In this document: positions 1,319-1,735 of the stretch, piece by piece
How the letters are laid out: every line of letters begins with the position of its first letter
Numbering within the stretch: the stretch's first letter is position 1
Origin: a virus
Lineage: Duplodnaviria > Heunggongvirae > Uroviricota > Caudoviricetes
Length of the DNA: 5,151 bases
Reading direction: 5' to 3' (one strand)
IMG/VR virus record: IMGVR_UViG_2537561714_000007
The notes under the pieces: model-generated
Databases searched by the model: none
What the model saw: only the letters and a program-made list of their open reading frames with translations
What the model was told of the DNA's origin: nothing
Translations under genes and position numbers: made by a program

Positions 1319-1591
1319 TCATCTTGCTGTCAGTTGTTTGGATTTACGGTAGCCTGCCGCGTAAAGAGCTACATTTGGAAGACAAGTTGAGCCTTCATAT
1401 TTTCTGGTCAACGTTGTCAGTGTTATTACTTCTGCTCTCATTGCTGGTTTGCGTTTGCATTGTAAGACCACTCGTGATGGGGTTGGCCTGTGTAGTTTGT
1501 CGGAGCTAATCGCCTCCTGACTTTGCAGGTTTGCGCGACGAGCTCTACGGCGAGAAGCTGCGGTGCCTTTAAATTCTGTTTTTCTGGACAT
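1319..1591 (-). CDS. N: N-type transcription antiterminator, 90 aa, P22/Stx-phage-like rather than lambda-like
   Basis: Start at the internal Met of the ORF-track 114-aa ORF, with strong GGGAGGA RBS; arginine-rich motif GTAASRRRARRANLQ near the N-terminus; C-terminus CLPNVALYAAGYRKSKQLTAR resembles the recalled P22 gene 24 / H-19B N C-terminus. Confidence 0.8.
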   Translation of the reverse strand: MSRKTEFKGTAASRRRARRANLQSQEAISSDKLHRPTPSRVVLQCKRKPAMRAEVITLTTLTRKYEGSTCLPNVALYAAGYRKSKQLTAR

Positions 1592-1689
1592 AGATTCCTC
1601 CCGAATAAACTTTGGCGATGCAATCTCGAAGCTCCTCCTGAGACGGTTGCTTCGGCATTGCATCCCACAGCTTATGTGGTTGGGTGATC

Positions 1690-1735
1690 TGGCTTTTCAG
1701 CCACGTAGTCGAGAGTCGACGTTGTTTAAAGAGCC
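1690..1735 (-). promoter_or_regulatory. nutL: Candidate nutL: boxA (minus GCUCUUUAAACAA, plus 1722-1735) and boxB-like hairpin (minus UGGCU-GAAA-AGCCA, plus 1690-1703)
   Basis: Consensus-like boxA about 40 nt downstream of the predicted pL start, followed by a 5-bp stem with GAAA loop; lies in the N leader. Confidence 0.4.

Follow-up and report, generated by a model that had tools for sequence, protein, structure and literature searches.

The window, i.e., the whole 5,151-base stretch of DNA that was analysed, resolves into two blocks by its ORF map and by similarity searches. The left block, with all of its genes on the minus strand, carries kil, cIII, ea10, an 83-aa ORF, N, nutL, pL, a terminator, a 173-aa ORF and the 3′ end of cI, and in the right block lie cI, OR, cro, nutR, cII and the first part of O. 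The features are as follows.

1319..1591, minus strand: N gene for a VT2-Sakai-type antiterminator of 90 aa (ORF and translation), with an arginine-rich motif at about residues 14–28 and a P22/HK97-like C-terminus
1690..1703, minus strand: nutL boxB UGGCU-GAAA-AGCCA, a 5-bp stem with a GNRA tetraloop (sequence, hairpin scan)
1708..1720, minus strand: nutL spacer hairpin GUCGA-CUC-UCGAC, between boxA and boxB (sequence)
1728..1735, minus strand: nutL boxA GGCUCUUU (GGCTCTTT), then AA; kept in all aligned nutL copies (sequence)
1781..1809, minus strand: candidate pL, TTGACC-17-TACTAT, the best promoter upstream of nutL (promoter scan)
1789–1799, minus strand: putative Sakai-type operator core GAAGTACATAT (11-mer) in the candidate pL spacer, shared with the VT2-Sakai OR
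1903..3442, minus strand: cassette between pL and cI, in the rexAB position, including the 173-aa ORF at 2320–2841 and small ORFs
1997..2018, minus strand: intrinsic terminator of the cI-distal transcript (lambda t-imm equivalent; scan)
3343..4056, minus strand: cI, 237 aa; the lambda-type repressor of O157 Sp1 has the same protein sequence (100% identity)
3443..3489, no strand: interval of the crossover, 47 bp over which the two parents are identical (three-way alignments and SNP table)
4067..4130, plus strand: lambda OR3, OR2 and OR1; OR1 and OR3 exact, OR2 16/17
4157..4357, plus strand: lambda cro, 66 aa
4365..4396, plus strand: lambda-type nutR CGCTCTTACACATTCCAGCCCTGAAAAAGGGC, a 32/32 match to lambda nutR; the lambda annotation has Nutr at the equivalent site
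4365–4372, plus strand: nutR boxA CGCUCUUA (sequence)
4382–4396, plus strand: nutR boxB GCCCU-GAAAA-AGGGC (sequence)
4476..4769, plus strand: lambda-type cII (ORF and similarity)
4802..5151, plus strand: lambda-type O, 5′ part; the window ends where the ori iterons begin

The two blocks and their relatives

Positions 1–3753 of the window are 99.3–99.4% identical to VT2-Sakai, Stx2-II, phage 2851 and many O157:H7 Stx prophages, and positions 1–3442 find their best match, at 99.9%, in the left arms of O157 Stx prophages, with the finished prophage TX 265-1 likewise at 99.9% to the left arm. In comparison with the left operon of VT2-Sakai (Sp5), 2851 and Stx2-II, N is 100% identical, and nutL, pL, the terminator, the 173-aa cassette and the 3′ end of cI are essentially identical (99.3–99.9%). 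However, these phages go on with a cI of 231 aa, a cro of 71 aa, their own OR and a tetraloop nutR, whereas the window goes on with lambda-type counterparts. The cassette in the rexAB position is identical in the Sakai-immunity phages, and its 173-aa ORF matched no Pfam family, with just a weak sub-threshold match to Phage_int_SAM_1.

The right block has a different relative. Positions 3345–5151 are 99.6% identical to Sp1/CP-933H, the lambda-immunity remnant that lies beside tRNA-Thr, downstream of proBA, in O157:H7, and from 3490 to 5151, i.e., beyond the joint, the window differs from EC4115 Sp1 by a single base, at 3580. The cI protein of Sp1/CP-933H is 100% identical to that of the window, and the match extends over OR, cro, nutR, cII and the beginning of O; the draft contig L014 has the same iteron arrangement. 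However, beyond its cI gene Sp1/CP-933H has a 127-aa ORF, IS1203, the nutL of lambda and a lambda N that is truncated, whereas the window has the Sakai cassette and the Sakai-type N. The immunity region of the window is 98.4% identical to lambda, and its cI, OR1–3 and cro are of lambda specificity. The nutR 32-mer also occurs, identical, in L014, and the exact match to lambda agrees with the earlier note on this DNA, made from the sequence alone, which had called this nutR canonical lambda.

Several smaller observations concern this right arm. At 4098, OR2 reads C, as opposed to T in lambda, L062 and L015, and the −35/−10 spacer of pR departs from lambda-type sequences at 4110–4111; by mismatch count, these OR2 and pR-spacer variants (window 4090–4111) appear to be common to the O157 Sp1 remnant. 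A duplicated iteron unit, TCCCTCAAATTGGGGGATTGCTA, occurs twice in both L014 (6461–6560) and EC4115 Sp1, and the window ends at 5151 exactly at the iterons. The Sp1 loci L016, L018, L022 and L024 (O157) and locus L002 (3948–3962) carry, beside a truncated integrase, an 81-aa piece of lambda N (PF11438) and a nutL boxB of lambda type, and in several strains IS1203 parts this nutL boxB and N fragment from cI.

Searches of 50,697 phage records and 5,426 complete E. coli genomes found no single place that covers 80% of the window. The component parts are all known, and their arrangement is either an ordinary mosaic joint or an assembly artefact. The proposal of the earlier note that the window stems from a recombinant or defective prophage fits what was found, i.e., a Sakai-type left part at 99.9%, a right part that is Sp1 with one base change, and a switch between the two within cI.

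The N protein and the boxB hairpins

The N protein starts MSRKTEFKGTAASRRRARRANLQ and ends CLPNVALYAAGYRKSKQLTAR, and a GGAGG lies 6 nt upstream of its ATG. An upstream ATG (1663) would give a mechanical ORF of 114 aa; gene callers on related contigs choose the 90-aa start. N is the first gene of the pL operon, with the nut site before it, in the order pL (1809–1781), boxA (1735–1728), boxB (1703–1690) and N (1591–1319). The protein matches the Pfam family PF25694 (N_peptide) over residues 1–90, with E = 3.4e-32 and 111.3 bits against a cut-off of 27.9, whereas a Pfam profile search gave no match at E ≤ 0.1 to the lambda N family PF11438 (N36). As controls, lambda N matched PF11438 (92 bits), and P22 gp24, HK97 N, a phi21-type N and an N with a further arginine-rich motif matched PF25694. 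The N protein is 100% identical to the N of VT2-Sakai, phage 2851, phi-8 and PhiR11_1_star, so that the earlier description of the N module as not lambda-type is borne out by both the family assignment and the identity to VT2-Sakai N. Taken together, positions 1319–1809 are, as read from sequence, a complete leftward early-control module of the VT2-Sakai/2851-type Stx phages, comprising pL, nutL and N.

The relation of this N to other N proteins differs along its length. Identity to the 127-aa HK97/933W-type N is 41%, and the similarity to P22 gp24 is confined to the last 24 residues, at 79%. The C-terminal motif LPxVAxYAAGxRKSKQxTAR is present, and the C-terminal segment is identical to that of HK97 and 79% identical to that of P22 over the last 24 aa. 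By contrast, AASRRRARRANLQSQ, the arginine-rich motif, is nearest to that of lambda N, with matches at 9 of 15 aligned positions, vs. 6 for P22 and 5 for HK97/933W. The earlier suggestion that N resembles P22 gene 24 and the Stx-phage N proteins thus stands for the C-terminus but gives way to a lambda-like assignment for the arginine-rich motif. The N-terminal 63 residues give a weak pairwise alignment with lambda N (35% identity, E = 4e-5), in which R6–R8, R10, R11 and Q15 of lambda N are all kept and the patch RRRARR stands for the lambda RRRERR. However, Lys14 and Trp18 of lambda N are replaced by Leu and Glu, respectively, in the alignment. Trp18 of lambda N stacks on the boxB loop in the NMR structures of the boxB-bound protein.

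As a system of N and nut, the window shares with lambda the RRRxRR-A patch, Q15, the loop-proximal C-G and U-A pairs, a G-A-A...A loop and boxA, whereas its N is without PF11438, Trp18 and Lys14, its boxB has a true tetraloop without an extruded fourth base, and the C-terminal half of the protein is unrelated. With H-19B, 933W and HK97 it shares PF25694, the nutR plan of boxA, spacer hairpin and boxB (the plan of the home phages; PMC3526286) and the C-terminus, and the HK97 nutR is almost base-for-base that of Sakai. However, the loop in these phages is GACAA, a P22-type pentaloop, rather than GAAA, their motif is RSRRRERLKAKA, and their 127-aa N has a 37-residue insertion. On these alignments, the motif and the boxB of the window N system are the closest known relatives of those of lambda. 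In a side observation, the PF25694 N proteins are modular, with one C-terminal part of about 55 residues joined to differing motifs (L063 3870–4142, L069 3012–3284). The L063 N has a phi21-type motif and a boxB loop CUAACC, and the L069 N has the motif DDNARNRRRARRQAQ and a boxB CCCGC-CGAAAU-GCGGG, each with its own boxB at both nutL and nutR. The N frame of L073 (2586–2942) is frameshifted in an otherwise concordant Sakai-type contig, through either a sequencing error or a pseudogene.

The nutL site was found as the earlier note had described it, with a near-consensus boxA GGCUCUUU and a GAAA loop on a UGGCU/AGCCA stem, at 1690–1735 on the minus strand. Against the consensus CGCUCUUUA, the boxA reads GGCUCUUUA, i.e., 8/9. 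The conserved hairpin in the boxA–boxB spacer of nutL, whose counterpart in the nutR of both Sakai and HK97 is GGAC-AUUC-GUCC, resembles the arrangement in H-19B, where nutR has two hairpins (PMC3526286). The boxB stem is 100% paired in all 11 distinct nutL and nutR sequences, vs. 13–47% paired in slid controls, and includes a compensatory change, with the second pair G-C in nutL and C-G in nutR. Rfam holds no nut family, and the sole Rfam match of the window was the cIII thermoregulator. In the minimum-energy fold of the Sakai-type nut sites (window 1684–1736, minus strand; L001 7336–7392), boxA pairs with the boxB loop and 3′ strand while the spacer hairpin is kept, and the first base of boxA (G in nutL, C in nutR) covaries with the base in the boxB 3′ strand (C or G), POCJ13 excepted. 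This pairing hints at boxA:boxB as an alternative structure of the NUT RNA.

In the VT2-Sakai-type phages, nutL consists of boxA, the spacer hairpin and UGGCU-GAAA-AGCCA, and the cognate nutR consists of boxA, GGAC-AUUC-GUCC and UCGCU-GAAA-AGCGA. A tetraloop boxB is present at both nut sites of VT2-Sakai, 2B8, PhiR11_1_star, PhiR57_1, phi-8, POCJ13 and L073; in POCJ13, whose N is 86% identical, the nutL loop is GCAA, which is still GNRA. HK97, with its 127-aa N, has a nutR nearly identical to that of Sakai but with the loop GACAA. We surveyed 80 IMG/VR loci that encode N at ≥98% identity, and 74 of them carry two tetraloop boxBs, one at nutL and one at nutR. Among the six others, four have little or no upstream sequence or were left unchecked, one (L135) has lost nutR, and one (L130, the same as L014) has a lambda boxB, making it the only one of the 80 loci with a lambda boxB beside this N. 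The deletion in L135 (about 2950–3420), a Sakai-type prophage, joins the first part of cro to sequence upstream of a Q-like gene, so that nutR, cII and the replication genes are gone. Comparison therefore supports a GNRA-tetraloop boxB as the predicted cognate nutR of this N.

The pairing is just as consistent outside this group. Of the 12 lambda-type genomic loci listed, 11 have two lambda boxBs, including Sp1 and L062, and L003 has only one exact match; nutL and nutR boxBs of one class within a phage were also found in L063 (phi21-type motif), L069 (a further motif) and P22. The window itself contains exactly one tetraloop-type and one lambda-type boxB by hairpin scan. Since tetraloop pairing is kept in 74 of 80 loci, and lambda pairing in every lambda-type locus whose two nut sites could be reached, the window breaks a well-kept rule. 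The mismatch between N and nutR that the earlier note had pointed out is thus real at the level of sequence, with one tetraloop boxB and one lambda boxB beside a Sakai-type N, and a search of ORFs and hairpins for a second lambda-type N or a matching nut site, on which the note had made its claim depend, found neither in the window or L014.

The joint inside cI and the operators at pL

Alleles are Sakai-type up to 3442 and Sp1-type from 3490, with a lone Sakai-type allele at 3580 as the exception. The crossover run between these positions sits in the region of cI that codes for the C-terminal domain, over which the parental repressors are 95% identical in protein, and the repressor encoded by the hybrid cI does not differ from that of Sp1, which is lambda-type. 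Elsewhere, this arrangement occurs only in the draft contig L014 (6,777 bp). The joint of the window was found in none of 5,426 finished E. coli genomes or 50,697 phage records, and the exact 79-mer at the junction was absent from genome contigs and complete E. coli genomes. A metagenome match of this 79-mer (L025) was rejected as a different phage that shares just that cI allele. The reciprocal 79-mer was rejected as a diagnostic, being a common natural cI allele (28 contigs), and L073, which had one reciprocal-flank match, was rejected as a reciprocal product, being a fully concordant Sakai-type phage with another cassette. Exact-protein look-ups with the 173-aa ORF, cI, Ea10 and Kil returned standard contexts and no hybrid among the matches listed, which are the longest contigs and miss short ones.

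Other phages have joints in the same region. L062 (39.9 kb), one of the wild lambda-immunity phages with replaced rex, carries the cassette 1903–3442, with one difference, beside a lambda cI, OR, cro and nutR. However, on its left it retains lambda OL1–3, nutL and N, whereas the window has the Sakai versions. In L073, a Sakai-type cI is joined to another cassette and the Sakai-type nutL, nutR and N are retained, and L025 has yet another mosaic cI allele. The joints in L062, L073 and L025 suggest that the region coding for the cI C-terminal domain serves naturally and often as the joint at which the rexAB-replacing cassette is exchanged. Across this joint, as these comparisons have it, working phages keep N, nutL and OL matched to cI, OR and nutR.

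The same contrast applies to the operators. Near pL, a window-wide search found no 17-mer within 4 mismatches of any lambda operator, and the sole lambda-operator-like site outside 4067–4130 is an OL2-like 17-mer with 4 mismatches at 4825, inside O. The 11-mer in the candidate pL spacer is instead the longest word common to that spacer and the VT2-Sakai OR region. An OL of the same specificity at pL, which is part of lambda immunity (imm-lambda), is thus absent from the window, whereas L062 and lambda have lambda OL operators. The operators at pL are predicted to be non-lambda, such that the lambda CI encoded here would be unable to repress pL, and an element like this, if isolated, would express N and, via nutL, kil. 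This operator mismatch at pL, which the earlier note missed, is a more serious incompatibility than the nut mismatch.

A probable hybrid of two prophages and its expected behaviour

We interpret the window as a hybrid of a Sakai-type left arm and a lambda-immunity remnant, in which the mismatch between N and nutR comes from the joint inside cI rather than from a novel antitermination system, and we put the probability of this reading at roughly 0.75. By analogy with the N proteins of lambda, P22 and H-19B, the pL transcript would fold boxB, and the N-terminal arginine-rich helix of N would bind the tetraloop and the U-A closing pair. NusB/NusE would then assemble on boxA and NusA on the spacer and N, the P22/HK97-like C-terminus of N would hold RNA polymerase, and terminators would be read through, allowing transcription of ea10-cIII-kil-gam-bet. 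In the home phages, N would also act on the right operon via the nutR boxB UCGCU-GAAA-AGCGA, a partner that is absent from the window. From about 3443–3489 the sequence instead passes to the Sp1/CP-933H block, i.e., cI (N-terminal domain), OR, cro, nutR, cII and O, and the hybrid thereby breaks two pairings of intact lambdoid phages, namely that of N and nutL with nutR and that of cI and OR with OL.

The N module appears to be intact, a standard antitermination unit of the Sakai class, which should function on the left operon. N is expected to work there because it is identical to the N of Stx phage records, and VT2-Sakai, 2851 and the other Stx phages with an identical N are taken as viable. 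At the lambda nutR, this N most likely works poorly or not at all. As a stand-alone circuit, the window would therefore be incoherent, because its lambda CI has no operator at pL and its N is most likely poor or inactive at the lambda nutR. If the joint is real, stability would need a Sakai-type CI supplied in trans from another prophage.

Alternatively, the window could be a coherent working hybrid, in which the Sakai-type N reads both its own tetraloop boxB and the GNRA-like pentaloop of lambda, leaving antitermination of the right operon intact. The loop bound by lambda N is a GNRNA loop that folds as a GNRA tetraloop, a U-A closing pair is needed, and residues 6–11 of the protein are reported to be critical, with Glu9 inert or dispensable (PMC12027372). 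The two boxBs of the window have this U-A pair in common, share the loop-proximal C-G pair as well, and have loops that differ by one A (GAAA vs. GAAAA), while the N motif is 9/15 identical to that of lambda N, including R6–R8, R10, R11 and Q15, and the N-terminal 63 aa align with lambda N at E = 4e-5. Some cross-recognition of the lambda boxB by N is thus conceivable, and the literature searched gave no test of a Sakai-type N on a lambda nut site. However, a lambda boxB beside this N was seen just in L014 among 80 loci, the lambda Trp18 and Lys14 are replaced by Glu and Leu, and the right arm corresponds to a remnant that is dead, with a frameshift in its O gene in EC4115; moreover, with pL lacking lambda operators, control of lysogeny would still fail even with cross-recognition. 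We consider a coherent working hybrid unlikely. Less likely again is a cross-wired state of a real joint, in which the Sakai-type CI of a co-resident Stx prophage would hold off pL and N, and N would, after induction, cross-recognise the lambda nutR of the Sp1 arm via its lambda-like motif and the shared GNRA fold; if this were true, N and its boxB would stand, as a natural intermediate, between the recognition classes of lambda and P22. A lambda-type N elsewhere in the same element, serving the lambda nutR and leaving no functional gap, is very improbable. Beyond cI, the standard O157 Sp1 does keep a fragment of lambda N (81 aa, PF11438) and a nutL of lambda type, but this fragment is truncated and would, in the hybrid, fall across the joint, and neither the window nor L014 contains such a gene.

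Returning to the hybrid of a Sakai-type left arm and a lambda-immunity remnant, it is about equally likely that homologous recombination between co-resident prophages produced the joint and that the assembler did. Assembly as the source, to which we give slightly less than an even chance, would mean that an ordinary Sakai-type Stx prophage and an ordinary Sp1 remnant both lie in the source genome, that the assembler switched paths in the ~410-bp, 95%-identical repeat that codes for the cI C-terminal domain, and that a molecule with this joint does not exist. The arrangement is known just from two short contigs, the 5.15-kb window and the 6.8-kb L014, both of which end in repeats (the ori iterons in the case of the window), and hundreds of finished O157 genomes hold both parents, none with the joint or its 79-mer. 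The 47-bp run that contains the switch also ranks among the two longest identical ones, a place at which a graph with short k would branch, and a stray Sakai allele (3580) stands within the Sp1-type tract. However, the joint is also present in L014, which differs from the window at ≥9 sites, so that these are at least separate assemblies, and L014 runs on into an Sp1-type O gene with iterons. In addition, the switch is clean, with no majority-rule mixture, and natural joints are frequent in the same region of cI, as in L062, L073 and L025. Positions 1–960 of the window, a patchwork of alleles from two prophages co-resident in EC4115, would also fit a chimera, whereas the 99.9% identity of the finished prophage TX 265-1 to the left arm indicates that such patchwork alleles occur in nature too. 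The parents are 2.4 Mb from each other in EC4115 and oppositely oriented, such that a real single crossover there would be expected to invert a large segment of the chromosome.

If the joint is real, it adds one more exchange between resident O157 prophages, and it would part the int–N side of a Stx-type prophage from the side with replication, Q and toxin, which would affect inducibility and mobility. If it is a chimera, it serves as a caution that the conserved region coding for the cI C-terminal domain can mis-join prophages in short-read assemblies and thus produce apparent regulatory mismatches. The 90-aa Sakai-type N with its GNRA tetraloop and the 127-aa 933W/HK97 N with its GACAA pentaloop, on a near-identical nut site, form a clean natural pair in which to study the reading of loop size by arginine-rich motifs.

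Some minor observations were made at the left end of the window. The cIII thermoregulator (Rfam Lambda_thermo) lies at 340–398 on the minus strand, with 88.5 bits and E = 2.4e-21. The fine patchwork in positions 1–960 consists of alleles of the 933W-like Stx2a prophage of O157:H7 EC4115 at 47, 52, 109, 140, 547 and 676, and of alleles of the Stx2c/Sakai-type prophage at 81, 175, 254, 450, 456, 467, 490 and 812. The change at 109 abolishes the usual stop of kil, giving the 54-aa Kil variant of the 933W-like prophage.
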